From positions 1,135 to 65,134 of the forward strand of contig WGMT01000060.1 of assembly GCA_016124945.1 (NCBI GenBank): a stretch of DNA of 64,000 bases, in the 5' to 3' direction. The DNA comes from a bacterium. Its GTDB lineage: Bacteria; Chloroflexota; Anaerolineae; Caldilineales; Caldilineaceae. Under the pieces are notes generated by a model. The model made no database searches and was not told the origin of the DNA. It was given only the letters and a program-made list of their open reading frames with translations. Made by a program: the position numbers and the translations under genes. Of the stretch, positions 2,863 through 53,034 are shown in pieces. Position 1 is the first letter of the stretch; each line of letters starts with the position of its first letter.

Positions 2863-2900
2863 CAGGCAGACAGGTTTGACAGGCAGGTTTGACAGGCAGA
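2863..2900. repeat. Tandem repeat, 13-bp unit CAGGTTTGACAGG x2 (2871-2896) with partial flanking copies
   Basis: Read directly from the sequence. Lies in the spacer between the yqeY start and the TVP38-gene stop. Confidence 0.8.
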
Positions 2901-2984
2901 ACTGCCAACAACACTAAAGGTTTATTACAACTCGCCACCTATCCACTATATGACAGGAAGGGTCAAATGTCGATGGTGGTTAAC

Positions 2985-3776
2985 CTACATTTTTTTCTTT
3001 TGATCCGCCGTCTTTGCTAATCGAGTCTGGACATGCCGATCAAACCAGTTGACAATTGGATTTTGGTAGCGCCAAAGCCCACCAAACACTACGACCAAGA
3101 CCAGGATCAGCAACACAAGTTCCTGCCAACTCAGGCTTGTTGTTCCACTGGCCGCCGCAGTGATCAAAAAGATTGTCGGCACCCTGGTCACCAGAGTAAG
3201 TATGAGAATGCGCTGTACACTAACTTGTGAGAGTCCGGCCAAGAAATAAGGGATATCCCCCACCGGTGCCAGCAAGAGCAATCCCCACACCAACCAGCCG
3301 CGCCGATTTGTCATTTCATTCCAACGGTCAAGCCTGGAATCACCTACCATACGCACTACCCAGGGTCGCCCGAAGCGCCGAGACAGCAACATGGCTGTAG
3401 CTGCCCCCAGTAATGTCCCCAGAGTGCCGTAGATTCCACCCCAAACTGCCCCATATAGAAACCCTGCTGCCACAAAGAATGCGTAGGCAGGGATAGGAGC
3501 AACAACAATTTGCAGCGCGTTAAACAGGACAAGGATCGGTGGGCCGAACCAGCCAAGCCAGATCACGACATCTTCAATTGCTTCTTCATTTTGAGCAAAC
3601 GAAAAGACAATATTGGCAGCGTCCTGTAGCAGCGGCCAATACCGCGCCAGTAGCAAAAGCACAATGGCTCCGGCGACTATCCCCAAGAATAAGCGTGGGA
3701 CACTGCTGCGCGGCAGTTTTACATACTTCCATAACTGATTATGCAAAATAAGCTCCGCCGTCGGAAAAACAGGCAA
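2985..3776 (-). CDS. TVP38/TMEM64 (DedA-related, SNARE-associated) family membrane protein
   Basis: 263-aa polytopic ORF with the family motif VAPIPAYAFFVAAGFLYGAVWG. Confidence 0.7.
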   Translation of the reverse strand: MPVFPTAELILHNQLWKYVKLPRSSVPRLFLGIVAGAIVLLLLARYWPLLQDAANIVFSFAQNEEAIEDVVIWLGWFGPPILVLFNALQIVVAPIPAYAFFVAAGFLYGAVWGGIYGTLGTLLGAATAMLLSRRFGRPWVVRMVGDSRLDRWNEMTNRRGWLVWGLLLLAPVGDIPYFLAGLSQVSVQRILILTLVTRVPTIFLITAAASGTTSLSWQELVLLILVLVVVFGGLWRYQNPIVNWFDRHVQTRLAKTADQKKKM

Positions 3777-4026
3777 ATCATATGCAAGGTTGATCGGAGT
3801 ATAGTGTATCCCTCATTATAGAACGAGTAAGAGCACCGCTCCAACCAGGTAAACCGCATGGATGTCATTCAAGTTGAGGGTCAACAGTACCCCAAAAGCT
3901 GAAATACACCCCAACTGCATGACATTTGATCATCGCTAGCGTTTCCACTTCTTTACATCCATGTCACCCCTTCGATAGAATAAGCTCTTGCGAATGGTTC
4001 AATGTCGGTTCACGGTATCAATTCTA

Positions 4027-4076
4027 CGCAGATAGATAACGCAGATAGATAACGCAGATAGATAACGCAGATAGAT
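4027..4076. repeat. Tandem repeat, 13-bp unit CGCAGATAGATAA x3.8
   Basis: Three perfect copies plus a partial fourth. The array ends 23 nt upstream of the obg ATG, in the divergent spacer with the TVP38 gene. Confidence 0.9.
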
Positions 4077-4098
4077 GTAGACGATAGGACACTCATCC

Positions 4099-7753: not shown

Positions 7754-7787
7754 ATGTACGAATAAAGATGTACGAATAAAGATGTAC
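7754..7787. repeat. Tandem repeat, 14-bp unit ATGTACGAATAAAG x2.4
   Basis: Read directly. Lies about 40 nt upstream of the S41 peptidase start, in an AT-rich 660-bp spacer. Confidence 0.8.
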
Positions 7788-9232: not shown

Positions 9233-9856
9233 ATGAACCTCGAACGCTTAAAACAGGCAGAAGAAGAGTTCCTCACAGAGTACCCCGGCGGTTTTGCACA
9301 CCCCCAAATGGACGCCATCGCCAGGAAACACAAGATGGACAAAATGATCGCTCTGGCCCAGGATGGATTTGCCCGCCAACACTTTAAGTCGCCGGCGTTG
9401 ATTGTCGAGAATATGGCAAAGGTTGTCAGCCGATCATCACTGGTGTCGGTCTTCGAGAAGCCCAAATTCAGGGATTTTGTTCAGATGCTCCCTATCGAAG
9501 ACAAAGACATCGTTGCCACTGGGTTGAAAGAGGTACTCTACGGCGACGAAGCACAAGGATTCGAGCAGATGCTCGCCATTTTTCAGAGTGGGAAGGTTGC
9601 CAGATGGCCACTGATGACCGTTTGCCAAACCTACTTTCGGCCAGACGTTGAGGTGTTCATCAAGCCGACGACGGTTAAAGGCGTGATCGAGACCTTCCAA
9701 CTGGAACATGTACACTACAAACCAACGCCGTCGTGGTCTTTCTACGCCGCGTACCGCTATGCGATCAACGAGATGAAAAGTTATGTTGATCCATCGCTCT
9801 CGCCGTCTAATGCGGCATTTTCAGGATTCCTGATGGTGAGCATGGGCCAGCGTTAA
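9233..9856 (+). CDS. Hypothetical cytoplasmic protein
   Basis: The ORF is open from 9194. ATG 9233 is preferred because AGGAG lies 6 nt upstream. I recognise no motif. Confidence 0.6.
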   Translation: MNLERLKQAEEEFLTEYPGGFAHPQMDAIARKHKMDKMIALAQDGFARQHFKSPALIVENMAKVVSRSSLVSVFEKPKFRDFVQMLPIEDKDIVATGLKEVLYGDEAQGFEQMLAIFQSGKVARWPLMTVCQTYFRPDVEVFIKPTTVKGVIETFQLEHVHYKPTPSWSFYAAYRYAINEMKSYVDPSLSPSNAAFSGFLMVSMGQR

Positions 9857-10840: not shown

Positions 10841-12565
10841 CTACTGATAGATGACCAGATTCGGCGTGATCTCCATGTAGCCTAGGTTTGGGTAGGCTTC
10901 CACCCCCAGAGACTGGGCTTCACTGAGCAACGGCTCATCCCAACGGTAGAAAAGCTTAAAGGCGACGAAGGGTGAATCCTCATTAACTAGGATGTTGTAC
11001 TTGCCGATCTTGCCCCAAGGGCCGCCCCAACCATCTACCGAAAGGGTCAGGGCCAGGCCAGGATAGGTGGGATCCAACTGATATTTGTTGACGATCATAT
11101 TGTCTTGAAATTGGTGGACAAGCAGGACACGCTGGCCGACGATCTCGTTTTCATCCATGTACTGCTGGATCGCGGCCTGCGTCTCGTTAACCGATTCAGC
11201 GGTGACAAAGCCGATGGGGTCCCCAGGCCATCGTTGACCAGGACGCACCATGGCGAATTCGGGATCGATGGCGAGGTGCACATTTTCATGGGCCAGGTAA
11301 GCCAGCGCAGGGCTGATCGACTGTGCCGGGGTCAACGCACCGATCTGCACATCTAAGATCACGGCGTAGTCGAGTTCCTTGGCTTTGGAGATGTAGGTCA
11401 TCACTGTCTCGTCATCAAGAAAAGCCAGGTAACTACCGTCACCGGGGGCTTTAGTCGCCATGCCATAGACGAGATGGAAGGCCGGTTTCACCGTTAGTTC
11501 AGGGCCATTGGCAAGATCGTAGGCCGTCACCTGTTCTTCGAGTCGCAACGCCAATTCGTCTACATCGAACTCACCCAGGATGCCCATGACAGGCACATTG
11601 GGGCGCCCGTAATAGGTGAGCCAGGTCTGATTGTAGAAAGGAGAATCGGGCGTCATTTGCTGGGCAAAGAGCGTCATGCGCTCGGTGATCGTCCCCCGCG
11701 CTTGGATCGGCGGCGCAGTGAACGGTGTCACCCCTTCGGGCAGCGTGCCGTCGGAAGCGGGGATGAGCAACGTCCACCCCACCCTAATGATGTCGGGATC
11801 CGGCAGATCATTGGCCGCTTGCAGCGTCTCTACATCGATGTTGTAGGCAATTGCGATGCCGCCCAGGGTGTCACCGGGCTGCACCACGTAGGTGGCGGCC
11901 TGCCGTGTAATCTCTACACTGCCTGTAATCTCCACTGCCGGCGTGAGGGTCGCTGTAACGGTCACAGTGGGCATCGCAGTGACCGTGGGCGTCATTGTAA
12001 CCGTAGACGTTGTTACAACGGTTTCAGTGGCGGTTGCCTGGGCAGTGGCGGTTGATGTGGGTGACGGCGTGAATGTAGGAGACGGCGTTAATGTCGGCGG
12101 TTGTGTGGCTGTTGGCAACGGTGTGGGAGACGAGGTGGGAGACGGTTGCGGCGTTACACTTCCCTGCACAGGGAAACGGCCTGCGTCCTCGGGCCAGCGC
12201 AGGGTGATCACCTGGCCGGGCGCGCCCAGTCGTCCTATACGCTGTCCGTCTACAGTTACGTCGACGCCGCCAGCATTGCCGATGAGAATGGTGATCTGTT
12301 CACCCGTCCAACTTTCCTGACGACCGGCTTCTATAATGCCGTAATAGCTTTGTTCGCCATCGACTGTGGCCTCGATCCAACTACGCGACGTCACGTCCAC
12401 AGTAACGGTATAGCGCTGTTGCAGCGACGGAGCGGCGGCAGCGTGGCGCAATCCACCGAGCAAAAGAACAGACAACAATGTTGCACAAACAAAGGCATGG
12501 AACATTGGCATGGGCACACGGCGGACAGCGGCGGTTGCAGTAAAGTTGGTGCGGAGAAATTGCAT
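10841..12565 (-). CDS. Secreted multidomain protein: RodZ-C/DUF4115-like domain, Thr/Pro linker, LysM domain, uncharacterised C-terminal domain
   Basis: Signal-like N-terminus. DUF4115-like block (ITILIGNAGGVDVTVDGQRIGRLGAPGQV), a TPSPT-rich linker and LysM (YVVQPGDTLGGIAIAYNIDVETLQAANDL). About 290 further residues have no motif I recognise. Confidence 0.7.
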   Translation of the reverse strand: MQFLRTNFTATAAVRRVPMPMFHAFVCATLLSVLLLGGLRHAAAAPSLQQRYTVTVDVTSRSWIEATVDGEQSYYGIIEAGRQESWTGEQITILIGNAGGVDVTVDGQRIGRLGAPGQVITLRWPEDAGRFPVQGSVTPQPSPTSSPTPLPTATQPPTLTPSPTFTPSPTSTATAQATATETVVTTSTVTMTPTVTAMPTVTVTATLTPAVEITGSVEITRQAATYVVQPGDTLGGIAIAYNIDVETLQAANDLPDPDIIRVGWTLLIPASDGTLPEGVTPFTAPPIQARGTITERMTLFAQQMTPDSPFYNQTWLTYYGRPNVPVMGILGEFDVDELALRLEEQVTAYDLANGPELTVKPAFHLVYGMATKAPGDGSYLAFLDDETVMTYISKAKELDYAVILDVQIGALTPAQSISPALAYLAHENVHLAIDPEFAMVRPGQRWPGDPIGFVTAESVNETQAAIQQYMDENEIVGQRVLLVHQFQDNMIVNKYQLDPTYPGLALTLSVDGWGGPWGKIGKYNILVNEDSPFVAFKLFYRWDEPLLSEAQSLGVEAYPNLGYMEITPNLVIYQ

Positions 12566-12750
12566 TGTGTATTCACTCCTTCAGGGGTCAGTTTTGCAGG
12601 TTTGTCATTTTCGCAGATTTGGGTATGATTGTCCATACATCCCCCCAAAACCCTCGGGTTCATTTGCTCTTTGGATATCGTTCGCGCGCCACTGCGAAGT
12701 GTGTCCACCCTGTCCAACTCAAATTTGAATCGTTCTACAGGAGAATTGCG

Positions 12751-13347
12751 ATGCGTCTGCTTGGCAAGTACGTGCAATTCATCGACGCGTTGACCGAACG
12801 TGTGGGCTGGCTTTCGATGCTGATAGCCGCGCTGACCGTATTTGTAGGCTTCTACAATGTGGTGGCTCGCTTCGTTGGGCGCTACATTGGCGTACAGTTG
12901 TCGTCGAATATGTTTATCGAATTGCAGTGGTATATGTTCTCATTGGTCTTCTTTTTGAGCTTTGCCTACATCCTGAAGAACGGCATCAACGTGCGCGTAG
13001 ACTTTATCTACGCCAAGTGGTCGAAACGGCGTAAGGCGACGCTGGATTTCTGGGGACATCTCTTCTTTTTGCTGCCATTTTGTGTGATTGGCATCTGGTT
13101 CACGATCAACCCCGTCCTCTCTTCGTGGGGGCGGTTGCCCAACGGCGGCTGGGGCCCCTGGGAGCTGTCGCCCGACCCTAGCGGGTTGCCGCGTGCGCCG
13201 ATTAAGTCGATGATCATCGTGGCATTTTCGCTGCTCTTGTTGCAAACCACCGCCGAACTGATCAAGTTATACGCCATTATGCGCGGCCAGGAAGATCTGC
13301 TGGAAATTCGCAGCGCAGACAGTGATGCCCCACTTCGTATCGAATGA
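12751..13347 (+). CDS. dctQ: TRAP transporter small permease subunit
   Basis: The ORF is open from 12565. ATG 12751 is preceded by CAGGAG. The product is a 198-aa 4-TM protein sitting immediately upstream of dctM. Confidence 0.8.
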   Translation: MRLLGKYVQFIDALTERVGWLSMLIAALTVFVGFYNVVARFVGRYIGVQLSSNMFIELQWYMFSLVFFLSFAYILKNGINVRVDFIYAKWSKRRKATLDFWGHLFFLLPFCVIGIWFTINPVLSSWGRLPNGGWGPWELSPDPSGLPRAPIKSMIIVAFSLLLLQTTAELIKLYAIMRGQEDLLEIRSADSDAPLRIE

Positions 13348-13440
13348 CTTAGTAGTTTTCTCGCTAAGTTCGCGGAAGGTTGCGAATTTAGCGAGAAAAC
13401 CACTAAGGGTATCGAATAACCTAGGGTATCGAGTTAACCA
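13348..13440. repeat. Structured dctQ-dctM spacer: 20-bp inverted repeat starting 1 nt after the dctQ stop, plus an imperfect 17-bp tandem duplication
   Basis: CTTAGTAGTTTTCTCGCTAA (13348-13367) pairs with TTAGCGAGAAAACCACTAAG (13388-13407) with one mismatch. GGGTATCGAATAACCTA / GGGTATCGAGTTAACCA lie at 13407-13440. Confidence 0.8.
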
Positions 13441-13533: not shown

Positions 13534-14874
13534 ATGGGGTTTGAATGGCTGGCTGTCCTCATGTTCGTTGTCTTTTTTGTGTTGATCCTCTATGGGTATC
13601 CCGTCGCCTTCTCGTTCGCAGGCACGGCAATTGTCTTTATGCTGATCGGCCTGGCGTTGGGTGCGTTTAACTTCAATTTGCTGCGGCTGTTGCCTAATCG
13701 TTGGTTCGGCACTATGTCGGATTTCACCTTGTTGGCGATTATCTTTTTCGTCTTCATGGGGGCAATCTTCGAAAAATCGGGGCTGGCCGAACGATTGTTA
13801 GAGACGGTGGGCATTTTGATGGGGCCGGTTCGCGGTGGATTGGCGCTGGCTGTGGTGCTGGTGGGGACGCTTCTGGCGGCGGCGACTGGTGTGGTGGCGG
13901 CGACGGTAATTGTGATGGGCTTGCTCTCGCTACCGATGATGGTGCGCTACGGCTACAACCATCAACTGGCTACAGGGATTATCACCGCATCAGGAACGCT
14001 GGCCCAGTTGATACCGCCCAGCCTGGTGCTGGTGATCTTGAGCGATCAGCTCGGGGTGTCGGTGGGCGATCTTTTCTTGGGTGCGCTGATCCCGGGGCTG
14101 ATTTTGTCGGGGCTATATGCGCTGTACGTCCTCTTTATTGCGCTCATCCGCCCACAAGACGCCCCCGCGCTGCCGCCTGAGGCGCGCACGTTGAAGGGGG
14201 CAGCGCTGGCACAGCGGGCATTGGTGGCTGTCGTACCGCCACTACTGTTGATCTTTGCTGTGTTGGGCAGTATCTTCTTTGGGTTGGCCACGCCCACTGA
14301 GGCGGGCGCAGTGGGTGCATTCGGCGCTTGTCTGCTGGCGATGTTCAACGGCAATCTCAACTTGCGCCTGATTCGCGATGCAGCACGCTCCACCGCAAAC
14401 ATCACAGCGTTGGTAATTATGATCCTCTTCTGCTCCACCTACTTCGGGCTGGTCTTCGATGGGCTGGGTGGGCAGAATTTTGTAAAAGAATTCCTGGTGA
14501 ACTTGCCGGGCGGCTTCTGGGGCTTCATCATTGCAGCCAACATTATCATCTTCTTGTTAGGGATCAACCTGGAGTTTATCGAGATCAGTTTTATCGCCAT
14601 GCCTTTGCTGGTGCCTGCGGCCCGCGAACTCGGCGTGGATCTAGTCTGGTTCGGCGTGATGATGGCGATCAATTTGAACATGGCCTTCATTTCACCACCG
14701 GTCGGCTTTTCGCTCTTCTATCTGCAAAGCGTGGCCCCACCAGAGGTAAAAACCATCGACATCCATAAAGGTGCGCTCCCCTTCATGGTGCTCCAAGGAA
14801 TGGCGCTGATCATTGTGATCCTCTTCCCGCAGACGGTCAATTGGTTGATACAGGCAGCGAACGCAGCGCAGTAG
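13534..14874 (+). CDS. dctM: TRAP transporter large permease subunit
   Basis: 446-aa polytopic ORF typical of DctM. Follows dctQ. Confidence 0.9.
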
Positions 14875-14970
14875 AAATGAGTAAGGAGAAATGAGTAAGG
14901 AGTAATTTATTGACGACATGGTTCCTCCATTGGGAGCACCTCGTCAACACGAATTTACTCCTTACTCATT
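14874..14970. repeat. 14-bp tandem repeat GAAATGAGTAAGGA x2 plus a 16-bp inverted partner, exactly filling the gap between the convergent dctM and dctP stops
   Basis: Tandem copies at 14874-14901; the first nt is the last nt of the dctM TAG. AATGAGTAAGGAGTAA (14890-14905) is the reverse complement of 14955-14970, which ends 5 nt from the dctP stop. Confidence 0.85.
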
Positions 14971-14975
14971 ATTTC

Positions 14976-16109: not shown

Positions 16110-16315
16110 ACAATTCTCCTTGTCACCCAAATGATTGAAAATACAAACGACCAAGGCGTCAAACGAGGATTCTGCCCCGCTCGTCTCAACCAACCACGTT
16201 TGCCCCCGGCGCGGGAAGCCAAGGACAAGTCAGTTTCAAAGCTAAAAACGTGAGGCAAGGGGAAGTTGACCTATTGTAATCGGATGTAGGACGTTGTCAA
16301 GTCGATTTTGCCGAC

Positions 16316-16376
16316 GGACGACAGACGACGGACGTTAAGCATGTTGCCGCCAACAGTCGTCTGTCGTCTGTCGTCC
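16316..16376. repeat. Inverted repeat GGACGACAGACGAC / GTCGTCTGTCGTCC, with GTCGTCT heptamer reiteration
   Basis: 14-bp arms at 16316-16329 and 16363-16376, in the dctP / rlmD-like divergent spacer. Confidence 0.75.
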
Positions 16377-16395
16377 TCTGTAGTACAATACCCTC

Positions 16396-23750: not shown

Positions 23751-23777
23751 AAGATCGTCCTTGGGGCGGTGTTGGGA

Positions 23778-23801
23778 AATGAATGAATGAATGAATGAAT
23801 G
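23778..23801. repeat. Tetranucleotide microsatellite (AATG)6, which is (CATT)6 on the coding strand of the downstream gene
   Basis: Six perfect copies, 28-51 nt upstream of the acyl-CoA synthetase ATG (23750). They lie between its AAGGA Shine-Dalgarno and the upstream terminator hairpin. Confidence 0.9.
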
Positions 23802-23803
23802 AA

Positions 23804-23851
23804 GAATAAAGATTGAGTAGAGGCAATGCTTTCTCTACTCAATCTTTATTC
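23804..23851 (-). terminator. Perfect 19-bp hairpin downstream of the BON-domain gene
   Basis: GAATAAAGATTGAGTAGAG (23804-23822) pairs with CTCTACTCAATCTTTATTC (23833-23851) around a 10-nt loop. The sequence following on the minus strand is T-rich. Confidence 0.65.
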
Positions 23852-23866
23852 TTCGTTCACTATCTG

Positions 23867-28903: not shown

Positions 28904-29158
28904 ATGAAAACGTACGAAGTGAGCATTGAATACTGCGTCCAGTGAAACTACACCCCTCGTGCTGTCCGTGCGGCAGCCGATCTATTGAGCGACTACACCC
29001 CATCTATCACAAGCCTCAAGCTCATCCCCTCTTCAGGCGGACGCTTTGAAGTCCTTGCCAACGGCACCGTGATCTACAGCAAAAAAGCCGAAGGACGCCA
29101 TGCCGAAGAAGGCGAGGTGGCGCGGTTGTTTGGGGAGAAGTTGGTGATTCGTGATTGA
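28904..29158 (+). CDS. selW: SelW/Rdx-family selenoprotein (84 aa) with in-frame UGA (Sec) at 28943-28945
   Basis: AAGGAG at 28891-28896, then ATG 28904. Translation: MKTYEVSIEYCVQ-U-NYTPRAVRAAADLLSDYTPSITSLKLIPSSGGRFEVLANGTVIYSKKAEGRHAEEGEVARLFGEKLVIRD. IEYCxxU is the Rdx redox motif, and 70 stop-free codons follow the TGA. The gene is absent from the ORF track because TGA was treated as a stop. Confidence 0.8.
28957..28980 (+). promoter_or_regulatory. Bacterial SECIS-like stem-loop
   Basis: The hairpin starts 11 nt after the UGA. The lower stem has 3 bp (28957-59 with 28978-80), and U28960 is bulged. The upper stem has 6 bp (28961-66 with 28972-77, one G-U pair). The apical loop is CGUGC. 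Confidence 0.55.
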
Positions 29159-29182
29159 TGATTGGGCAGATCCTGTCGAGTA

Positions 29183-29220: not shown

Positions 29221-29245
29221 TCTGCCCCAATTACCAATCCCTTTC

Positions 29246-30218: not shown

Positions 30219-30231
30219 CTCATCTGTGGAT

Positions 30232-30756: not shown

Positions 30757-31001
30757 TAAACGTTCACATGCTCCACAGAATCCTCGAACAGTTCGTTCAC
30801 CCATCCATTCAAACTCTTATTTTGCAGCTTGGCCTGAACGTATAGCTTCCGATGAAGTTCGGGAGAGATTCTCACTGTGAACTTTCCAGAAAACGGACGT
30901 TCAGGCTCTTCGCCGCGTTCTGCGCAGAATTCTATATAATCTTCAATTATGATACCAAAAACTGGTGTCACAAAACAAGATCTGAGGAAAAAACGTTCCA
31001 C
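30756..31001 (-). pseudogene. HicB-family (RHH) antitoxin-like gene, N-terminally truncated or degraded
   Basis: The C-terminal two thirds match the HicB/COG4226 pattern (DYIEFCAERGEEPERPFSGKFTVRISPELHRKLYVQAKLQNKSLNGWVNELF). The ORF starts at GTG with no conserved N-terminal half. An N-terminal-like remnant (..YDSGTFFPQIL..) is visible in another frame upstream. Confidence 0.5.
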
Positions 31002-31273
31002 TATCGTAGCTGCACGCTATCAGCGGTTCGTGCTTGACGAAATCACCTACATTGGAACGAGATCTCGTCTTCAATGAACCGCACGCTGGTTGAACATTAA
31101 GATTTTAATCAGGCAACCGTAGCCGCTGCTTTTAGCTGCGGTTCTCTCTGGATGGGAAGCCGTGCGGTTAAAAACCGCACCTACGTCTTACCAGGTTATT
31201 TTCTAAATCATCAAGTAGCGTGCAGCTACGCAAGAGGATGTTTCGTCCTCTACCCACGCATCACGGATTACGC

Positions 31274-31308
31274 ATCACGAATCACGAATCACGAATCACG
31301 AATCACGC
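31274..31308. repeat. Heptamer tandem repeat ATCACGA x5
   Basis: Four perfect copies and one variant, preceded by the related ATCACGGATTACGC. The TGA stop of the GH2 gene (31303-31305) lies inside the array. Confidence 0.9.
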
Positions 31309-33914: not shown

Positions 33915-34008
33915 AATAGAACGCGGATGGAGCGGATTGGGCGGATCTAGGCGGATGATTTTATTTCATCCGTCAGATCCGCCCAATCCGCTCCATCCGC
34001 GTTCTATT
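33915..34008. repeat. Long perfect palindrome (34-bp arms, 26-nt partly self-pairing spacer) built from GCGGAT motifs phased every 9-10 bp
   Basis: AATAGAACGCGGATGGAGCGGATTGGGCGGATCT (33915-33948) is the reverse complement of 33975-34008. Lies downstream of gcvP and upstream of the GH2 gene. Confidence 0.9.
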
Positions 34009-34123: not shown

Positions 34124-34163
34124 CCCTGTCCCCAATCCCCAATCCCCTGTCCCCAATCCCCAA
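34124..34163. repeat. Tandem repeat of about 20 bp (CCCTGTCCCCAATCCCCAAT x2), i.e. reiterated CCCCAAT heptamers
   Basis: Read directly. The array ends 1 nt from the gcvP TAG (34165-34167) and is flanked by direct CCTACGT copies. Confidence 0.85.
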
Positions 34164-37176: not shown

Positions 37177-37390
37177 GTCCCTGTCATCAACCTGAGAGAT
37201 TGACCCACAGCATTGTACTGCCGTGAACTTGCCCCGTCGGTGTCCTCGGCATATGACACCGAGTCCTTTCCAGAGTAGCCGCAGCACGACGATCCGTTTG
37301 CCTGAGAGTGTCACCGAGGGAGTCGTGGCCGCTCCACCGGCTTGCACCTTCGGCGCCCCTTTTGCAGGGATCTCTCTCGCCGCGTGTTGG
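37177..37390 (-). promoter_or_regulatory. Tandem glycine riboswitch (two aptamers)
   Basis: Minus strand. Aptamer 1: GAGAGAG...GCGCCGAAGGUGCAA...CUCUCAGGCAAA. Aptamer 2: CUCUGGAAAGGAC...CACCGACGGGGCAA...CUCUCAGGU..GACAG. These match conserved glycine-aptamer cores in the 5' leader of gcvP. Confidence 0.9.
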
Positions 37391-37464: not shown

Positions 37465-37570
37465 AGAAATAGAAAGCGGATTGAACGGATGTAGCAGTTC
37501 GGCTGAATTGTGTAGTCAACACAAGTCAGTTTCCGTTCCGCGCAATCTACTCAATCCGCTTTCTATTTCT
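37465..37570. repeat. Long palindromic element (20-bp perfect arms, 66-nt partly paired spacer) related to the 33915-34008 palindrome
   Basis: AGAAATAGAAAGCGGATTGA (37465-37484) is the reverse complement of 37551-37570. It shares AATAGAA...AGCGGATTG and GCGGAT/ACGGAT motifs with the element downstream of gcvP. Confidence 0.85.
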
Positions 37571-37622
37571 CCTGTCGGCTCAGTCTCTCCTGTCGGCTCA
37601 GTCTCTCCTGTCGGCTCAGTCT
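37569..37622. repeat. Tandem repeat, 18-bp unit CTCCTGTCGGCTCAGTCT x3 (perfect)
   Basis: Read directly. The TGA stop of the S8 protease gene (37616-37618) lies inside the third copy. Confidence 0.9.
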
Positions 37623-40870: not shown

Positions 40871-40903
40871 GGTGATACAGTATGCTTCGGGGTGATACAG
40901 TAT
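40871..40903. repeat. Direct repeat GGTGATACAGTAT x2 (period 20 bp)
   Basis: Read directly. Lies 22-54 nt upstream of the protease ORF start and downstream of the GGDEF/HD-GYP gene. Confidence 0.8.
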
Positions 40904-43888: not shown

Positions 43889-43948
43889 TCGCTGCTGTTA
43901 TCGCTGCTCACCCATTGTCGCTGCTCACCCATTGTCGCTGCTCACCCA
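43889..43948. repeat. Tandem repeat, 17-bp unit TCGCTGCTCACCCATTG x3.5
   Basis: Two perfect copies with a diverged copy and a partial copy flanking them. Located 11 nt after the histidine-kinase stop and upstream of the GGDEF/HD-GYP start. Confidence 0.9.
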
Positions 43949-43959
43949 ACATTTTCGTT

Positions 43960-45165
43960 TTACTCGGTTAAGACTGCGATTGGTAACGCCAAATAGAAGG
44001 TACTTCCCAACCCTTCGCCTGCACTTTCAACCCATACACGCCCATTGTGTGCTTCAGCGATTTTTCTACATACAGCAAGCCCTGTACCCATACCACCAAA
44101 GACACGGGTCGTTGTACCGTTTCCCTGACTGAACTCATCAAAAATGGTACGCTGTTTTTGGGGTGATATACCAACCCCCTGATCTGAAATGGCAACAATA
44201 ACTTCGTTAGATGACACAATCATCTGGACGAGCACCGAGTTGTCTTCGTAACTAAACTTTATAGCGTTATCAAACAGATTGCTTAACGCCTGAGTCAAGA
44301 GGGTACCATCTGCCATTACGTGCACTGCGTCGACACTTGGAGACAGCCACTCTAGCCGAATCTGCCGATTGAGTGCATACGGCTGAGACTTACGAAGCAC
44401 CGTCTGAAGAAGCGAAATCAACTCTATCGGCGTCTTGTGCATCTGCTCTGTCGATAGTGACTGTAACAGAAGCAGTTGTTCTATCATTTCCTTAAGATAC
44501 TGAGCCCTTTCTTGCAGAATGCTCAATGCATCTCGCTGATCTTGTGTTAACGGACCGAGGACTTCGTCCATCAGTAAATGTGTGTAGCCGTGAATTAAGG
44601 CTAGGGGCGTCCGCAATTCGTGAGACACATTCTGTAGCATCTCCTGCTTAGCTTGCAGTGCCCGATGAAGTGATTCATTGCTTAAGCGTAGCCCTTCTTC
44701 AGCCGCCTTGAGCTGGGTTACATCATTCACAATGACTGCACTGGTACGAGAATTGACTCGGCTCCTCACATCAACCGGCTGGACCTTGATCTGAATGTAG
44801 CGCTGCAAGTGTTGATCATAGAGTTCCATCTCACTCGTTGAATAGTGACGCAGTGCATGGTTCAGGAAACGCAGCATGGTACATTCACCATCTACACAAT
44901 CATGATGGAGAAGTGTGTGTAGATTCCTTCCCTTCACCATGGTAACCATCCCCAAACGCCAGCGCTCAACCGCGCGATTCGTTCGCCAGATCGTCCCTTC
45001 GTGATCCACCAAGCAGATCAGTTGTGGCAGCGCATCCATTGTCGCTTCCCACTCTTGCTTGGCAAGTTCGACTTTCTCGAACGTCTCTTGCAACAGCCGA
45101 GCCGACACAGAAGCCTGAGTGGAAGGTACTTCGTTTTTGTCGTCATGCGAGAGTGCGTAAGCCAA
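43960..45165 (-). CDS. Sensor histidine kinase (PAS-like - HisKA - HATPase_c), cytoplasmic
   Basis: H-box SHELRTPL, N-box LFDNAIKF, G-box GGMGTGLAVCRKIAE. No TM segment. Confidence 0.9.
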   Translation of the reverse strand: MAYALSHDDKNEVPSTQASVSARLLQETFEKVELAKQEWEATMDALPQLICLVDHEGTIWRTNRAVERWRLGMVTMVKGRNLHTLLHHDCVDGECTMLRFLNHALRHYSTSEMELYDQHLQRYIQIKVQPVDVRSRVNSRTSAVIVNDVTQLKAAEEGLRLSNESLHRALQAKQEMLQNVSHELRTPLALIHGYTHLLMDEVLGPLTQDQRDALSILQERAQYLKEMIEQLLLLQSLSTEQMHKTPIELISLLQTVLRKSQPYALNRQIRLEWLSPSVDAVHVMADGTLLTQALSNLFDNAIKFSYEDNSVLVQMIVSSNEVIVAISDQGVGISPQKQRTIFDEFSQGNGTTTRVFGGMGTGLAVCRKIAEAHNGRVWVESAGEGLGSTFYLALPIAVLTE

Positions 45166-45237
45166 AATGATACCTTTCGTTTTTGACTTTGTCGGAGCGA
45201 GTCTTACTATCAGCTTCGACAGTTAGTCGTTGCCACT

Positions 45238-45387
45238 ACATTACAATTGGCTGATATATCCCGACATTACAATTGGCTGATAGATTTGATCGTCTACATT
45301 ATACTTGGCCGATATGAATACTTAGCCGATATGAATACTTGGCCGATATGAATACTTGGCCGATATGAATACTTGGCCGATATGAAC
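45238..45387. repeat. Composite tandem array: ACATTACAATTGGCTGATA x2 (spaced), then ACATTATACTTGGCCGATAT and GAATACTTGGCCGATAT x4
   Basis: Read directly. Seven related 17-20-bp units sharing TTGGC(T/C)GATA, located 73-222 nt upstream of the histidine-kinase start. Confidence 0.9.
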
Positions 45388-45658
45388 TTATGCACAAAAA
45401 ACCTATCCATATACTCGTAGACAGGAAAAAGCTCAGTCTGACAAGCGAGGATAGGTCAAGAGCTGACTCGAGGCAGCCCGGCTGTCATAGCGATGTGCTT
45501 TAGACCCGTAGCTTTGCGTCCCCATCTTTCGATAAGTTTGCCTTTGCTTGAACAGAGATCATTTAGTTACTGTACAAAATACCTGAAATGTGCAAATTTA
45601 TGCTTAGTATTTTTAGCGTATTCTCAAACAGACTCAGTAAAAAGATTGAATTCTGTAG

Positions 45659-47228: not shown

Positions 47229-47498
47229 TTGCTTATCCTCGATTGCAAGAATTCAAAAAGGCATGCTGTAGAGAACGCCACCGTACTCAGGATGTAGTTC
47301 ATTAGAGATATGTTTAAGCATAAATCGGTTCAGCCACATTGCAAGCGCAACCGCTTACTCTTTGCTGACAAAACATATAAGCAATAACACAATTAACGCT
47401 TATATTAGCACTAATCGATTTATACATCCAACCAGAATATTTACAGGGGAGAAAATTGTGAAGGTAGGCGAGGGTATACGAGGAACGCAGATGGGGCA

Positions 47499-47617
47499 AT
47501 GAACTTACATCTGAAATGAACTTACATCTGAAATGAACTTACATCTGAAATGAACTTACATCTGAAATGAACTTACATCTGAAATGAACTTACATCTGAA
47601 ATGAACTTACATCTGAA
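47499..47617. repeat. Tandem repeat, 17-bp unit ATGAACTTACATCTGAA x7 (all perfect)
   Basis: Read directly. The TAA stop (47607-47609) and the last three codons of the upstream 100-aa ORF lie inside the terminal copy. Confidence 0.95.
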
Positions 47618-47909
47618 ACGTACGGCTATTCTGTGCAACAACACGTTGCCCATAATTTGTCACGTACAAAAGAAGTTTCCCGTGCAGTTTCTTCCATTCA
47701 GGGCTTTGCAAAATCGCATGAATCTTTTCTAAGCTACTCACTTCACCAATGGTCAGCATCTGTGGACCGTTACCAAATATTGTATACCATACTTCAGCCG
47801 GCTCAATGCCCAATTGCATCAAACCGGGCGCAAATTCACGCATTACAAACTCGAAGTAAGGCTGTTCACGTCCAACTTTGATGTCCCACTTCATCAACAA
47901 CCTGACCAT
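47607..47909 (-). CDS. Hypothetical 100-aa protein
   Basis: Clean ORF in the AT-rich islet with no motif I recognise. Coding status rests on length and lack of competitors. Confidence 0.5.
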   Translation of the reverse strand: MVRLLMKWDIKVGREQPYFEFVMREFAPGLMQLGIEPAEVWYTIFGNGPQMLTIGEVSSLEKIHAILQSPEWKKLHGKLLLYVTNYGQRVVAQNSRTFQM

Positions 47910-48173
47910 GGAAGCGAATACCCTCCGCGATTGGCATATTTCTCGTTATTTCTCATACCGTTTTATTATAAATGGAACGGCAATAGAGCTTTTGCTCGTT
48001 CTCACTAGGTTCTGTTGTCATTTACCGTGGGTCCTCTGGAGAGAATTGTTGCTTAACGCCAAATCGGTAGGAGGAGATCCACGAAATGCCAATACAACCT
48101 GACAACATTCTTCAACTGGCTGAAGTCAATATTTTGCCAACGTCTATTCAGCCAAGATACGGTTAGCATAACA

Positions 48174-50261
48174 GTGCCAAGATACCAAAAGCCCATCAGA
48201 TTTGCAACTCCTCATCTAATTCACCTCTGGCTGGGATTGTTGGTGCTTTGCACCAGCCCGCTTTGGAGTGGACGCGTGGCAGAAGCTCGCCCCGTGCAGC
48301 AGTCACCCACGATAGATCCCATACACTTGTATTTACTGCCGCTGACAGACACATCTGTACGGCTTATGACTCACACCTTTGATGTTGACGTACGGCTCGA
48401 AAATGAACAAACGGTATTCCTCGTCAACGCCGGTTACAGACTTCATAACACAACACGGGAAAGCCAGACCGTGCTACTGCAAGTGATCCCATCCCCAGCC
48501 CAGACAACCCAAGGTCTCCCAGAAGGTGTTGCGCTGGCCGTGGATGGACAGGTGCTGCCGCTGCAACCTACCGGCACCGGCTATCCTCAAACCAGCCAGG
48601 TGACCATTGCCGCGGATGGACGCCGCCTGCTCACGCTGACCTACCAGGTGCGCAGCAACGCCGTTGACCTTGGTACCTTTCGTTATGCTCCTCGTTTACT
48701 TGACCCTTGGGCCGGGCGGCCTGAAAGTTGGCGCATTACACTTAACCTCCCAGGCGAAACATCCGGCTCGTTACCCGCCGAAAGCTGGGTAACCACCTCG
48801 CCTGATTCGTGGACATATAACGGTCGCAGGCTACAGTGGCTACAAGAAGGCGCGTTTCCCCAACAACCATTCGTACTCCAGTGGATCGCACCGCCCCTCT
48901 GGCGTTCTCTGGCTGAGACACGTCAACTGCTCACTACCGAACCAACTCTAGAACGATTCCTGACACTGGGCGATCGATACAATCGGCTCTACCGAGCACC
49001 ACAGATCGAGGACGGTGCACGCCGCCGATTCTATGCCCAGGCATTGGCCGCCTACAGCGACGGCATCACCTACGTGCAGCAGGTGGGGCTACCTTCGACA
49101 GAGTTGGCCGCAGTGCACCGCGCCCTGGCAACCCTCTATCGCAGCCGTAGCATCGGCAGCAACGGAGAGGTCGATCCTGCCTACATCGATCTGATGGTGC
49201 AAGAAATCGAGCGCGCGCTGACAACGCTCCCCCAGGACGATGGCCGCCGCACAGAACTCACCCAATGGCTAGCGCAAGGACTGGAGACACAACTCCGGCA
49301 AGCCCAACAACAGGCAAATTGGTCTCAGGCGGCAACTATTCTTGAACAGATGGCGACACTGCCTAACTTTGATCCTGCCTGGATCGCCTCGGAACGACAA
49401 CTCATCGAGCTACAACAAGCCCTCATCCTGCTTGGTCAAGACAACCAGGACGCCGCCCTTGCACTGGCAGGCGCCGCCATCCTCGATGAATCTTTGCTGC
49501 CGCCGCCCGAAAATCGAGCACTCTTTGCCGGCTGGCAGGTGACACTGACACTGGGACTCAACGAAAACGCGCTTCAGCTTGTCGCTTCACCTGTGGAAGG
49601 GCGCCAAGATACAGCGCGCCTGGTCGCCGATCAGCTTGAACAGGCGTGGCAGAATGCCGGGGCAACCGGCGCCCAGGTTTTCTTCATGGCGGATGGCCGC
49701 CTGCGCATCGACCTATCGTCACAGGCATTGACCGAAGGACGGCTTGTCCTCGCTCGCTCAGTGCCGCCTTTAACCGATTGGGCGCTTTTGCGTACGCTTC
49801 TGGCTTCACTCGATCCCTCTGTCAACCGTAGCAATCACTGGGTCTGGGATCGAGTGGAGATTGCCCAATACATCGATCTACGCGCCGCTTCGGATCAATG
49901 GCGTGGTGTGGCAGCACTGCTAGAACGACAGGCCGCCGACATTCAATTCGTCTCCGCCGGCACAGACACGCAATCGGTAGACGCCGTTCAGGCTGAGATT
50001 CGCCCTCAGTTACACCAGAACTACCTGACAAGCGAAGCACAAATCTGGCAGAACGCGGTCCGTGGCAGTACCGTCCGGGTTGAGGTCTTGGTAGGTGCAG
50101 AGCGCGATCCGGCCCGCGTTTGGATTGTACAGATGAGTGATGCGCCACAGACACTTTCTTTCCAAACCGAAGTGTTAAGCGGCCCACGTTTACTGATGGC
50201 AGTGCTCATCCTATTGGTTTTGATACTGGTACTCGCTGGGTTGCTCTGGCTACTACTCTAA
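48174..50261 (+). CDS. Uncharacterised exported protein with N-terminal signal and C-terminal TM anchor
   Basis: 695-aa ORF with a GTG start. N-terminal hydrophobic segment (LIHLWLGLLVLCTSPLW), C-terminal LLMAVLILLVLILVLAGLLWLLL, and a helical repeat-like middle. Sits immediately upstream of the transglutaminase gene. Confidence 0.65.
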   Translation: MPRYQKPIRFATPHLIHLWLGLLVLCTSPLWSGRVAEARPVQQSPTIDPIHLYLLPLTDTSVRLMTHTFDVDVRLENEQTVFLVNAGYRLHNTTRESQTVLLQVIPSPAQTTQGLPEGVALAVDGQVLPLQPTGTGYPQTSQVTIAADGRRLLTLTYQVRSNAVDLGTFRYAPRLLDPWAGRPESWRITLNLPGETSGSLPAESWVTTSPDSWTYNGRRLQWLQEGAFPQQPFVLQWIAPPLWRSLAETRQLLTTEPTLERFLTLGDRYNRLYRAPQIEDGARRRFYAQALAAYSDGITYVQQVGLPSTELAAVHRALATLYRSRSIGSNGEVDPAYIDLMVQEIERALTTLPQDDGRRTELTQWLAQGLETQLRQAQQQANWSQAATILEQMATLPNFDPAWIASERQLIELQQALILLGQDNQDAALALAGAAILDESLLPPPENRALFAGWQVTLTLGLNENALQLVASPVEGRQDTARLVADQLEQAWQNAGATGAQVFFMADGRLRIDLSSQALTEGRLVLARSVPPLTDWALLRTLLASLDPSVNRSNHWVWDRVEIAQYIDLRAASDQWRGVAALLERQAADIQFVSAGTDTQSVDAVQAEIRPQLHQNYLTSEAQIWQNAVRGSTVRVEVLVGAERDPARVWIVQMSDAPQTLSFQTEVLSGPRLLMAVLILLVLILVLAGLLWLLL

Positions 50262-50414
50262 GGGTTAGGGTATAAGCGGTTTTTCGTAGCAGACAAAAGA
50301 TGCGGTACACTGGTGTTAGGTTCTGTGAGACATTGACAGTGCAGTCTCCTTCTCTTCGTGCAGATGGTAGGCAGTGACCCCACCTGTTGCTACCTTTGAA
50401 AACCAGCTAAATCC

Positions 50415-52847
50415 ATGTCCATCAACGCAAACCGGCGCGGCCTGAACAGCCCGATGAATGTTCCGCCGCCCCAAACCAATACAAATCTGTCCTCACCCTC
50501 GTCACCCGCTGCAGCAGAAACACATTACAGCCTGGCACACTTTCAAGAAGGCCGCACCGGGATCATCCTCTTGATGGGGATGCTCTACTTGCTGCTGGCC
50601 TTTTCACTTGACGCCGCCGGCTGGGTGGCCAACATGGGGATCCTCATCCCTGTGGTCCTTGGCGCGCTGGCAATGGGTGTTCTCATGTCTTTCAGCCGTT
50701 TCGACGGCTTTTTCATGCTCTCCCACAGCCTGTCCACCGGCCTGGCCTGGGTCTTCTTCTGGATGACAAGGCTGGTAGGAGAAGAACAGCGCGTCCGCAT
50801 TTTTGTGGAACACGGCGTGCCCGATCTACAAGCCCGCGCCTACTTTCTGCTGGAACGTTGGCTGGAGTGGGTAGAGGCCGCACTCAGTGGCACGGCCAGC
50901 AACGACAACTACGTCTTCATCCTCGAAATTAGCTTTTTGCTCTGGTGGCTGGCCTACCTCGGCGCTTGGACGGTACTACGCCACGGCTACGTCTGGCGCG
51001 GCGTAATGCTCGCCGGCGTCGCCATCCTCGTCAACACCTACTACGCGCCCCAACCAGTCACCGGCCTACTGGTGACCTTCTGCATCGTCTCGCTCCTGCT
51101 CCTGGCGTGGACGAACCTCATCTCGCACCGGCAGCGCTGGCGATTCGAACGCATCCGCTTCAACCAGGACATCGCCTTCGACTTCATGCGCAACGGCGTC
51201 TACTACGCCATCGCCGTCATCTCGATTGCCTTCATCGCGCCGAACCTGGGCCGCAACGCCCAGTTCAACCAGTGGATGTCCCCCATCAATCAACAATGGG
51301 AAAGCGTAACCGAAGAATGGGATCGGCTATACCAGGGCATCAACCGGCAGACAATCCCGGTGCAGAGCGCCTTCGGCCGTTCGCTTACACTGGGCGGCGA
51401 ACGCAACGTCACCGCGCAGCCGGTCATGCAGGTGGCATCGGTGGAAGGCCGTTACTGGCGCGCTGTGACCTTCGACACCTTCACCGGGCGACAGTGGCTC
51501 AACACCACTACCGCCGAAGTGGAATACGAAGCCAACGAGACAATCCCAGTCATCAATTGGACAGCGCGCAGCGTGGTGACACAGACGGTGACCATGCTGG
51601 CCCCCAGCGGCAGCATCCTCTTTGGTGCGCCGGACATTGTGCGCGCCTCGGTGCCGATAGCTGGGCTGCAGACGCCTGTGCTTAGCCTCCCCGAAGCAGA
51701 GGAAATCCAACCCGGGCAGGGTGAAATCACCTGGAGCCGCTCGCGCACCCCCCTCAACGAAGGGGACCGTTACACCGTCGCCAGTAACTACACCGCCGTC
51801 ACCGTTCGTGAACTGCGTGAAAGCGGCAGCGACTATCCAGCAGAAATCCTGGAGACATACCTCCAGTTGCCCGAAACCTTCTCGCCGCGCGTCGCAGCGC
51901 TTGCTCAAGAAGTAATCCAGGGGCAAGAGACCACCTACGACATCGCCAAAGCGCTGGAACGCTTTCTACGCAGCAACTACGAGTACAACGAAGAGATCGC
52001 CGCCCCCACCGCAGAACAAGATCCCGTAGAATACTTCCTCTTCGACATTCGCCAGGGTTACTGCGATTACTACGCCACGTCGATGGCGGTGATGCTGCGT
52101 AGCCTGGGCATCCCGGCGCGCACGGCCAGTGGTTACGCCGAAGGCACCTACGACAACGAAACCAACACCTTCATCATCACCGAACGCGACGCCCACACCT
52201 GGGTTGAGGTCTACTTCCCCCAATACGGCTGGATTGAATTTGAACCGACTGCCGGTGAAAGTACGCTCAATCGGCCCGAAGGCATCGATCCACAAGAGGA
52301 GCAGAGTGGACAGAACACGCCCAACAACCTGCCCAACGGGGATCAACCCCAGATGGACGATTTCATGGACGAGAACTTCGACCAGTTCAACAACGTTGAT
52401 CCCGGCTTCTTCGAAGACGCACGTGGCGCCGCCAATCGCAACTGGCTCTGGATCAGCATTGCGCTGACCGTGGTGGCATTGGTCGGTGGCTGGTGGCTGC
52501 TTCGTCGCCGTCTCTATCAGGGACCAGACACCTTTGAAGCCGAGCCGCCCAACCTCTTCTATGAACGCCTCACCGATTGGGGACAGCGTCTGGGCATTCT
52601 TTCGCCGTCTACGCGTACACCCTACGAGCGAGGACGCGATCTAGTACAGCAAATACCGCCCGGCGAACCCTACATCGATCGCATCACCGACATCTACGTC
52701 CATCATCGTTTTGCCCAGCGCCGCGCCATTCCACAGGACGCCTCAGGCGAGTTGGCCCAAAACTGGCAGTTACTGCGCCCAATTCTCTGGCGATCCTGGT
52801 TCGAGCGCCAATTCCGTCGTCTCAGTCGGCGCAAACCACGCACATAA
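50415..52847 (+). CDS. TgpA-like transglutaminase-domain membrane protein
   Basis: N-terminal multi-TM block, then a transglutaminase core (GYCDYYATSMAVMLRSLGIPAR...DAHTWVEVYFPQYGWIEFEPT), a further TM segment and a C-terminal DUF4129-like tail. Confidence 0.85.
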   Translation: MSINANRRGLNSPMNVPPPQTNTNLSSPSSPAAAETHYSLAHFQEGRTGIILLMGMLYLLLAFSLDAAGWVANMGILIPVVLGALAMGVLMSFSRFDGFFMLSHSLSTGLAWVFFWMTRLVGEEQRVRIFVEHGVPDLQARAYFLLERWLEWVEAALSGTASNDNYVFILEISFLLWWLAYLGAWTVLRHGYVWRGVMLAGVAILVNTYYAPQPVTGLLVTFCIVSLLLLAWTNLISHRQRWRFERIRFNQDIAFDFMRNGVYYAIAVISIAFIAPNLGRNAQFNQWMSPINQQWESVTEEWDRLYQGINRQTIPVQSAFGRSLTLGGERNVTAQPVMQVASVEGRYWRAVTFDTFTGRQWLNTTTAEVEYEANETIPVINWTARSVVTQTVTMLAPSGSILFGAPDIVRASVPIAGLQTPVLSLPEAEEIQPGQGEITWSRSRTPLNEGDRYTVASNYTAVTVRELRESGSDYPAEILETYLQLPETFSPRVAALAQEVIQGQETTYDIAKALERFLRSNYEYNEEIAAPTAEQDPVEYFLFDIRQGYCDYYATSMAVMLRSLGIPARTASGYAEGTYDNETNTFIITERDAHTWVEVYFPQYGWIEFEPTAGESTLNRPEGIDPQEEQSGQNTPNNLPNGDQPQMDDFMDENFDQFNNVDPGFFEDARGAANRNWLWISIALTVVALVGGWWLLRRRLYQGPDTFEAEPPNLFYERLTDWGQRLGILSPSTRTPYERGRDLVQQIPPGEPYIDRITDIYVHHRFAQRRAIPQDASGELAQNWQLLRPILWRSWFERQFRRLSRRKPRT

Positions 52848-52866
52848 AATTCGTGTAATCAGTGCC

Positions 52867-53034
52867 TCCGCTGCAAAAAACAGAGATCAACCACAAAGAA
52901 CGCAGAGAACACAAAGATTTCCACTCTATTTCTTTGTGCTCTTTGTGCTCTTTGTGCTCTTTGTGCTCTTTGTGCTCTTTGTGCTCTTTGTGCTCTTTGT
53001 GCTCTCTGGGGTTAAAAAGGCTTTTTGCAGTGGA
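52867..53034 (+). repeat. MITE-like palindromic element, copy 2 (168 bp), with internal 9-bp VNTR CTCTTTGTG x7 perfect (52939-53001)
   Basis: Same termini as copy 1 (TCCGCTGCAAAAAA / CTTTTTGCAGTGGA) and the same roughly 53-bp core as 30104-30218 in opposite orientation. The 9-mer, present once or twice in copy 1, is expanded here. Starts 20 nt after the transglutaminase stop. Confidence 0.9.

Follow-up and report, generated by a model that had tools for sequence, protein, structure and literature searches.

Private tandem repeats in the intergenic spacers of a Caldilineaceae chromosome segment, several of them at stop codons

Bacterial minisatellites with a variable number of tandem repeats (VNTR), familiar from multiple-locus VNTR analysis (MLVA) of Yersinia pestis, Mycobacterium tuberculosis and Bacillus anthracis, are composed of head-to-tail, locus-specific units that are mostly intergenic and are born by slippage or recombination. 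The mycobacterial MIRU are a dispersed family of intergenic tandem units of 40–100 bp that overlap operon stop and start codons in variable number, and the enterobacterial REP/BIME sequences are palindromic elements at gene 3′ ends. Borg elements carry private, perfect and fast-evolving tandem repeats that are intergenic or begin in the end of an open reading frame (ORF), with intergenic unit lengths mostly not divisible by three (PMC9879509). The heptamers of Xanthomonas (GGGAATC) and Nostoc/Anabaena (GGGGA(C/T)T, a type that includes cyanobacterial heptanucleotide repeats) lie close to stop codons or overlap them and can form G-quadruplexes, and in Xanthomonas transcripts begin or end at heptamer repeats more often than at controls (PMC4692102). 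Here we describe short tandem arrays in the intergenic spacers of a 64,000-nt stretch of contig WGMT01000060.1 from a member of the Caldilineaceae, referred to here as the window, with all positions counted from its first letter.

The window belongs to a metagenome-assembled contig of 81,867 bp (proteins MBI1298307–332, locus tags GC175_*). A first-pass annotation, made from the sequence alone, had listed a repeat of its own in nearly every spacer, typically beginning at or inside the stop codon of the upstream gene.

Arrays in the spacers and at stop codons

Arrays were detected with Tandem Repeats Finder (TRF), those scoring at least 50 being termed strong and those scoring 30–49 weak, and gene models were checked by Pfam matches and against the genes called in a syntenic relative. 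Every strong array of the first-pass list was recovered in essentially the same place; two other entries, 13407–13440 and 40871–40903, fall below a TRF score of 30. Intergenic DNA makes up 7,399 nt (11.6%) of the window, yet 12 of the 16 arrays with a score of 50 or more lie in it, a density ~23-fold higher than that of coding DNA. That nearly every spacer is occupied proved an overstatement, an array of this score being present in 12 of 35 spacers of at least 30 nt, and in 7 of 11 within the block from 31 to 53 kb.

Measured against unrelated bacterial loci totalling 1.55 Mb, the window is 2.9-fold richer in arrays overall, and for perfect arrays with 2.8 copies or more the density is 0.094 per kb, compared with 0.005 per kb (~18-fold). 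The background loci came from gcvP scans of genomes and metagenomes (top identities of 72% and 68% among the matches listed) and served solely as a background for repeat density. Six arrays in the 64 kb, at 4026, 37568, 43901, 45301, 47498 and 52931, are long and nearly or fully perfect (at least 2.8 copies and at least 97% matches). Array units measure 4–21 nt, differ in GC content from 23% to 62%, and have a length that is not a multiple of three in 10 of 13 cases; pooled on the sense strand the arrays contain A 25.6%, T 31.8%, G 25.7% and C 16.9%, with wide variation among arrays.

Independent assembly evidence is provided by k=31 Logan contigs of run SRR10063240, from the same sample. Contigs L081 (window 43919–45354) and L082 (window 47589–52889) are 100% identical to the window, and both break 30 nt inside perfect arrays (L081 in that at 43901, L082 in that at 47498). 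Because true tandem repeats make de Bruijn graphs end in just this way, the arrays are not assembly artefacts, a possibility that the first-pass annotation had raised.

Ten strong arrays lie in spacers that face the 3′ end of a gene. Five of them overlap or abut the stop codon (those of dctM, GH2, gcvP, the S8 protease and a 100-aa ORF), against 1.1 expected from random placement inside the same spacers with an overlap of one unit into the gene permitted (p ~0.001, in a test made post hoc on the same data that prompted the idea). The stops of GH2 (31303–31305), the S8 protease (37616–37618) and the 100-aa ORF (47607–47609) are contained in the first unit of their arrays, the dctM stop (14872–14874) shares a base with the first unit of its array, and the gcvP array is 1 nt from its stop; a sixth array of the ten lies 11 nt from the stop of a histidine kinase. 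These placements agree with the first-pass readings. Inverted repeats had been placed at two further stops. That of dctQ is real and begins at +1, with 13348–13373 pairing with 13382–13407. For the GNAT gene the first-pass placement, with the stop inside a 12-bp inverted repeat, is only roughly right: the stop stands at 30232–30234, just before the right arm CTGTGGATCTAC (~30236–30247) of an inverted repeat with its left arm at ~30030.

Owing to the stop always lying in the first unit of the array, the protein is left unchanged. C-termini agree with those of relatives wherever the stop lies in an array, except in GH2, in which the last two residues differ and a new TGA is derived from the array.

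Five arrays are located away from stop codons: those at 4026 and 7754 occupy divergent promoter or leader regions, that at 45301 a 5′ leader, and the distance to a stop is 85 nt for 2867 and 83 nt for 52931. Weak arrays in the window show no stop bias (0 of 6), and two more, mostly coding (29141 and 55656), do span stops. In five related loci totalling 145 kb, ~4 of 11 arrays are at stops against ~2.4 expected (a hand count), which is in the same direction and not significant; the stop-spanning top arrays there are L001 20937, L095 1379, L180 15342 and L181 5560. Within this window the bias toward stops is real; outside the window it is unproven.

Origin in place and recent expansion

The closest relative compared, a sister species represented by contigs L083, L084, L085 and L176 (ENA assemblies, three samples), shares ~87% nucleotide identity with the window and is syntenic with it from 4.5 to 57 kb. 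Further comparisons were made with contigs of other strains or species (L086–L094), two more distant genomes (L180 and L181) and additional relatives (L001 and L095).

At 47498 and 37568 the sister species carries one diverged copy of the unit, against seven and three copies in the window, and at 31255 it carries one to two diverged copies against about seven. No array is present in the sister at 43901, 45301 or 7754; two to three degenerate units stand at 23778 and 52931, and at 34124 a short heptamer run is retained without the 21-nt duplication. Across nine samples, all ten contigs of other strains or species hold a single copy at the 47498 site. Assembly collapse does not account for this single copy, because a collapsed array would retain at least k bases of repeat and not one diverged copy. 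The obg-leader array (4026) is absent from both L180 and L181.

With a single diverged unit in relatives at 47498, 37568 and 31255, the main arrays arose where they stand and do not descend from one mobile element, as the first-pass annotation had supposed from the unrelatedness of the units. It had also judged several expansions to be recent, which is borne out by arrays that are perfect while their flanks are ~13% diverged; copy numbers differ at orthologous loci, in a comparison made between species. Because the arrays are perfect here and single or absent in the sister, they are far younger than the divergence of their flanks and were born independently in each lineage. The sister has a private array of its own (14 nt × 5.9, L176 3287–3369), for which the window has no counterpart, and therefore repeat formation is active in both lineages. 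A private duplication follows the sister's own dctQ stop.

The private young arrays are those at 4026, 7754, 23778, 31255, 37568, 43901, 45301 and 47498. Apart from chance 10-mer matches, units of 13–18 nt recur neither elsewhere in the window nor in relatives. That each array has a unit of its own holds for these 13–18-mers and fails elsewhere, where units are shared by several loci: TTCGTGA occurs at 29141 and 31255, CACAAAGA at 30131 and 52931, and GCGGATKGR 9-mers at 33915–34008 and 37465–37570, while contig L095 bears CAAAGAACA, the unit of window 30131. Degenerate units, where present (4026, 31255 and 43889), are the last ones in the sense direction of the adjoining gene, being furthest from the stop at 31255 and 43889 and nearest the obg start at 4026.

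The first unit at 47498 takes in the final two codons of the 100-aa ORF together with its TAA stop. Beginning 4 nt before the TGA of the S8 protease, the array at 37568 occupies the interval between the stop and a conserved 9-mer hairpin. At 31255 the unit itself provides the TGA, and four perfect units adjoin the GH2 stop with degenerate ones farther away. The array at 43889 is the one 11 nt past the histidine-kinase stop, and lies upstream of the start of the GGDEF/HD gene. The array at 4026 terminates at the obg ribosome-binding site, and that at 45301 begins just downstream of a terminator-like hairpin and T-tract (45425–45392) that follow the aptamer of a c-di-GMP riboswitch. This riboswitch (c-di-GMP-I-GGC, 45468–45551, minus strand, with the terminator-like hairpin at 45425–45402) lies upstream of the histidine-kinase/GGDEF-HD operon.

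Directly upstream of the 18-mer array, the C-terminal coding part of the S8 gene contains a repeat of 15/30/45 nt (37625–37814, minus strand; ~11 units of five residues), which is the only strong in-gene repeat, and is imperfect and conserved in the sister. In the sister species, a REP-like palindrome (GTAGGGGTTTGCGTGGGG...CCCCACGCAAACCCCTAC) is found in at least three spacers (L084, reverse-complement ~3480–3570 and ~12720–12800; L176 ~3370–3450) and is absent there from the window; the same spacers are filled by different kinds of repeat in the two lineages.

Other repeat classes and gene context

The first-pass list had been read as one phenomenon, but is a mixture of five classes: private young arrays, conserved direct repeats, arms of hairpins, a dispersed palindrome and heptamers, the last comprising the gcvP array and the TTCGTGA common to the GH2 and SelW-like stops (Table 1).

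Table 1. Repeats in the window, with strand and context
Feature	Coordinates	Strand	Detection and context
13 nt × 2.5	2867..2899	-	TRF; past VTT-gene stop, 43 nt upstream of yqeY start
13 nt × 3.9, perfect (4026–4076), plus degenerate units	4026..4087	+	TRF; obg 5′ leader
14 nt × 2.4, perfect, private	7754..7787	.	TRF; divergent spacer, 40 nt upstream of S41 peptidase start
14 nt × 2.4 (two 7-mers per unit)	14873..14906	+	TRF; 5′ arm of hairpin
~70-nt palindromic insertion, 7-mer-array arms (CGACGGA / GTCGTCT)	16312..16376	.	Absent in sister
(AATG)7.8	23778..23807	-	TRF; directly abuts 22-bp-stem hairpin; downstream of BON gene, 28 nt upstream of acs start
7 nt × 3.6 (TTGGTGA/TTCGTGA/TTGATGA)	29141..29165	+	TRF; end of Rdx/SelW-like gene
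7 nt × 7.6, CGTGATT in gene sense	31255..31307	-	TRF; sister comparison
Perfect 34-nt inverted repeat, 9-mer-array arms (GCGGATKGR)	33915..34008	.	TRF and inverted-repeat search
21 nt × 1.9, perfect; GGGGAYT-type heptamers (GGGGATT/GGGGACA)	34124..34163	-	TRF; after gcvP stop
18 nt × 3.1, perfect, private, AGACTGAGCCGACAGGAG	37568..37622	-	TRF; one diverged copy in sister
Direct repeat GGTGATACAGTAT × 2, period 20	40871..40903	-	Upstream of S8 gene; conserved in sister
17 nt, 2.8 perfect copies (43901–43948) plus degenerate distal units, private	43889..43948	-	TRF; absent in sister
Direct repeat CATTACAATTGGCTGATA × 2, period 26	45239..45290	-	Conserved in sister
17 nt × 5.1 (97%), private	45301..45386	-	TRF; histidine-kinase 5′ leader
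17 nt × 7.1, perfect, private	47498..47618	-	TRF; gene-sense unit TTTCAGATGTAAGTTCA
9 nt × 8.3, perfect, TCTTTGTGC	52931..53005	+	TRF; past TgpA stop
10 nt × 2 (TGAGYCGATT)	55656..55675	+	TRF; spans formate/nitrite transporter stop

The direct repeats at 40871–40903 and 45239–45290 are probably protein-binding, operator-like sites, the latter having the look of an operator or promoter element and not of a variable array; they have this appearance because they are conserved and nearly identical in the sister species. The hairpin of which the 14873 array is one arm spans the whole convergent dctM/dctP spacer, reaching from one stop to the other, and is bidirectional, and the sister keeps both arms as complementary 7-mer arrays. 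Following the S8 array is a hairpin (37465–37570) of the same 9-mer family as that at 33915–34008.

The array at 52931 is the expanded arm of a palindromic CACAAAGA element (~52860–53040), of which a second copy lies at ~30018–30255. Imperfect palindromes in dispersed copies, as in REP- or MITE-like elements, are represented by this element with its two copies and by the 9-mer hairpins, and not by the main one-sided arrays. Beside the CACAAAGA palindrome, the genes for a HicB-family antitoxin and the GNAT acetyltransferase (~30058–31001) form an insertion of ~940 nt that is absent in the sister.

The gcvP array (34124) is of G-quadruplex type in sequence. Two other Caldilineaceae, the sister and L095, have a heptamer run at this site too, with differing copy numbers; in L095 it is (TGGGGAC)4.6 (9808–9839), 3 nt past the gcvP stop. 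Exact matches to GGGGANNGGGGA in the window are all inside the gcvP array, and their total is not above the shuffled expectation. The CCCCAAT heptamer had hinted at a cyanobacterial origin for the DNA, which is ruled out: the window has no HIP1 site and its proteins are those of Caldilineaceae. Upstream of gcvP is a glycine riboswitch (37280–37389, minus strand) with a terminator at 37176–37150; this leader is almost invariant between species, and the DNA around it turns over.

The repeat at 29141 covers the end of an Rdx/SelW-like gene, with its final codons and its double TGA stop, and is followed by a hairpin (29182–29221). The gene itself (28904–29161, plus strand) has an in-frame TGA in a CxxU motif (MKTYEVSIEYCVQ*NY...) and matches Pfam Rdx with E = 4e-20 when the TGA is read as Cys; owing to the in-frame TGA in this motif, it probably encodes a selenoprotein. 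Four degenerate repeats of 13–18 nt lie at 11900–12621 in a long RodZ_C/LysM ORF (10841–12565). This gene model and the coding status of the repeats are uncertain, because the sister gene has 358 aa against 574 aa and the sister scaffold contains a run of N. An inverted repeat at 58128–58214, with 8-mer-periodic arms (CGCCTAAT × 5.4), spans the start of a large TSP3-repeat gene.

Genes in the window are chromosomal and include obg, nadD, a TRAP transporter, acs, an ABC-F protein, gcvP and the histidine-kinase/GGDEF-HD operon; the best homologues of Obg and GH2, as well as protein cluster mates, belong to Caldilineaceae, phylum Chloroflexota. Matches to Rfam are limited to the glycine and c-di-GMP riboswitches, with no family at any array in the window. 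A CRISPR origin does not fit, the units being directly head to tail without spacers, and tRNA genes do not account for the arrays in the window. Cumulative GC skew has its minimum at ~10–12 kb and its peak at ~38–40 kb and falls steeply to 64 kb, and GC content climbs from ~0.44 (46–48 kb) to 0.65 (58–60 kb).

Explanations and known systems

We consider the strong arrays to be, more probably than not, micro- and minisatellites of VNTR type, that is, slippage products retained where reading frames are spared. Local seeds of 7–21 nt in non-coding DNA would have been duplicated in tandem, independently at each locus, after the split from the sister species, and then lengthened, in the course of replication or repair, by slipped-strand mispairing or unequal exchange. 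Selection would purge arrays from reading frames, the survivors being found in 5′ leaders, in gaps between terminators and promoters and above all over the bases of stop codons, and this filter would be the source of the stop bias. A unit that bears the stop could be copied downstream any number of times without altering the protein, and a unit length that is not a multiple of three would close all three frames within three copies. Such a filter agrees with the position of stops in the first unit, with the C-termini shared with relatives, with the 10 of 13 unit lengths indivisible by three, with the absence of further copies of the 13–18-mers, with degenerate units coming last in gene sense, and with most arrays folding no better than shuffled sequence. 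The arrays would be transcribed within 3′ or 5′ untranslated regions and be nearly neutral, their likeliest effect being on spacing only, between stop and terminator hairpin or between promoter and ribosome-binding site. The excess at stops may reflect added selection on the distance from stop to terminator, or a hotspot where translation or transcription ends.

Four points weigh against this explanation. Unrelated loci (2.6 Mb, with 58 intergenic arrays) show no stop bias (12 observed and 10.3 expected), and a generic frame filter therefore does not yield the bias elsewhere. Uniform mutation with a frame filter predicts ~1.1 of ten arrays at stops and five are seen, so that an extra cause, either a mutational hotspot or selection, is needed. 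This genome has more multi-copy arrays than its relatives L180 and L181. Finally, some arrays occupy plausibly functional sites, immediately behind the terminator of a riboswitch or up against a ribosome-binding site.

That the arrays are instead selected 3′-end elements, adjustable spacers or structures between stop and terminator that tune termination, mRNA stability or ribosome release, is unlikely. In its favour, the stop bias is real in the window, an array sits exactly between stop and hairpin at the S8, GH2 and SelW-like genes, and GGGGAYT-type heptamers are kept at gcvP in three species. Models exist in REP sequences located no more than 15 nt from stop codons and in G-quadruplex heptamer repeats; the same type of repeat is stop-proximal in Xanthomonas and Nostoc, and in Xanthomonas starts and ends of transcripts are over-represented at the repeats (PMC4692102). 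Against such selection, the orthologous genes of the sister species lack an array, the units are unrelated to one another and span the full range of GC content given above, and their perfect copies imply an age far below that of the genes served. The five arrays at promoters, in leaders or at a distance from the nearest stop likewise fall outside it.

RNA structure also argues against a selected 3′-end role. Folding exceeds that of shuffled sequences in the spacers at 14868–14975 (z = -7.5) and 23751–23866 (z = -9.5), but only two of eight one-sided arrays (47498 and 52931) fold better than shuffles, the others having z between -1 and +1.6. Roles as terminator surrogates, RNA-stability elements or binding arrays, suggested in the first-pass annotation, thus find no support, most arrays having no predicted structure and being absent from the same genes of the sister.

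A Borg-like, genome-specific process of repeat formation in the chromosome of a member of the Caldilineaceae, linked to the 3′ ends of genes either through mutation triggered where translation or transcription terminates or through selected expansions between stop and terminator that would act as a fast, reversible length dial in 3′-end formation, appears doubtful. Should it exist, it would be a new link between the boundaries of gene expression and the birth of repeats.

More improbable still is a mutational hotspot coupled to termination, in which R-loops or stalled polymerases block replication forks where ribosomes leave the mRNA or where RNA polymerase pauses or terminates, and restart by template switching produces tandem duplications. 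Replication–transcription conflicts do cause duplications and indels. Array starts at stops exceed the prediction of a uniform model, the 45301 array begins right after the riboswitch terminator, and a terminator-like hairpin directly adjoins (AATG)n. Arrays are, however, found in divergent promoter regions too. In a crude test, restricted to loops of up to 14 nt and missing long-loop hairpins, arrays show no greater proximity to short hairpins than intergenic positions taken at random, and the bias in the 145 kb of related loci does not reach significance.

Dispersed mobile palindromic elements (MITE- or REP-like), of which the arrays would be remnants or parts in place of local events, are a highly improbable source. 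In their favour are the two CACAAAGA palindromes in the window, the occurrence in L095 of the unit of 30131, the GCGGATKGR hairpins at no fewer than three loci in two species, and the 16312–16376 palindrome, which is an insertion relative to the sister. The units of the strongest arrays (4026, 37568, 43901, 45301 and 47498) are nevertheless confined to single loci in the window and relatives, and the ancestral single copy is visible at the orthologous site for 37568, 47498 and 31255. The likelihood that the arrays are artefacts of assembly or polishing is negligible: perfect arrays of up to 121 nt are difficult for short reads and copy numbers are as assembled, but the independent contigs match the window until they stop inside the arrays, and comparable arrays are present in other assemblies of related genomes.

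Retaining the VNTR-type explanation, with the selective filter as the only cause of the bias, the window would be an instructive but ordinary case of VNTR turnover. If the stop bias holds genome-wide, the birth of repeats in bacteria would be positionally non-random, and the arrays would offer a tractable counterpart to the unexplained Borg repeats. In practice, the arrays break short-read assemblies of this lineage and could serve as strain markers for Caldilineaceae.

We found no paper on tandem repeats of Caldilineaceae in the literature. The first-pass annotation knew of no described mechanism or function for stop-anchored repeats, but precedents exist, heptamer repeats close to or over stop codons being known in Xanthomonas and Nostoc (PMC4692102). 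The window is a rather dense case of known repeat types (VNTR-type, Borg-like and heptamer) in a bacterial lineage not previously described for it, and on our best reading its closest analogues are the Borg tandem repeats and the heptamer repeats.

Among the arrays here, that of gcvP alone is of the G-rich heptamer type, being stop-proximal and recurring at the same site in relatives. Whereas one heptamer occupies more than 100 loci in the systems described, it is found at one locus in the window, and most arrays are private 13–18-mers. The Borg repeats of Methanoperedens are similar in having perfect, locus-unique units that are absent in close relatives (the exceptions here being 52931/30131 and 29141/31255), in units of ~17–21 nt, and in unit lengths mostly not divisible by three. 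They differ in the adenine enrichment of their coding-strand units, which is not seen here, and in belonging to a giant linear extrachromosomal element, whereas the window is bacterial chromosome with obg, nadD, gcvP and acs. Borg ORFs also have abundant perfect in-frame repeats, and the genes of the window have no young perfect amino-acid repeats; array density is lower here, and sister lineages make arrays too.

As intergenic tandem units that overlap codons at gene ends and vary in number the arrays recall MIRU, but the dispersed 40–100-bp family typical of MIRU has no equivalent in the window, where units of 4–21 nt are mutually unrelated. Hairpin elements after stops or between convergent genes (14873–14970, 33915–34008, 37465–37570 and the CACAAAGA element) resemble REP/BIME sequences, but the one-sided arrays are neither palindromic nor a dispersed family. 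With VNTR loci the arrays share head-to-tail units, copy-number differences at orthologous sites and a local single-copy origin. They differ from them in being unusually dense, with six perfect arrays of 2.8 copies or more across the 64 kb, in many of them overlapping stops, and in having copy numbers that were compared between species.

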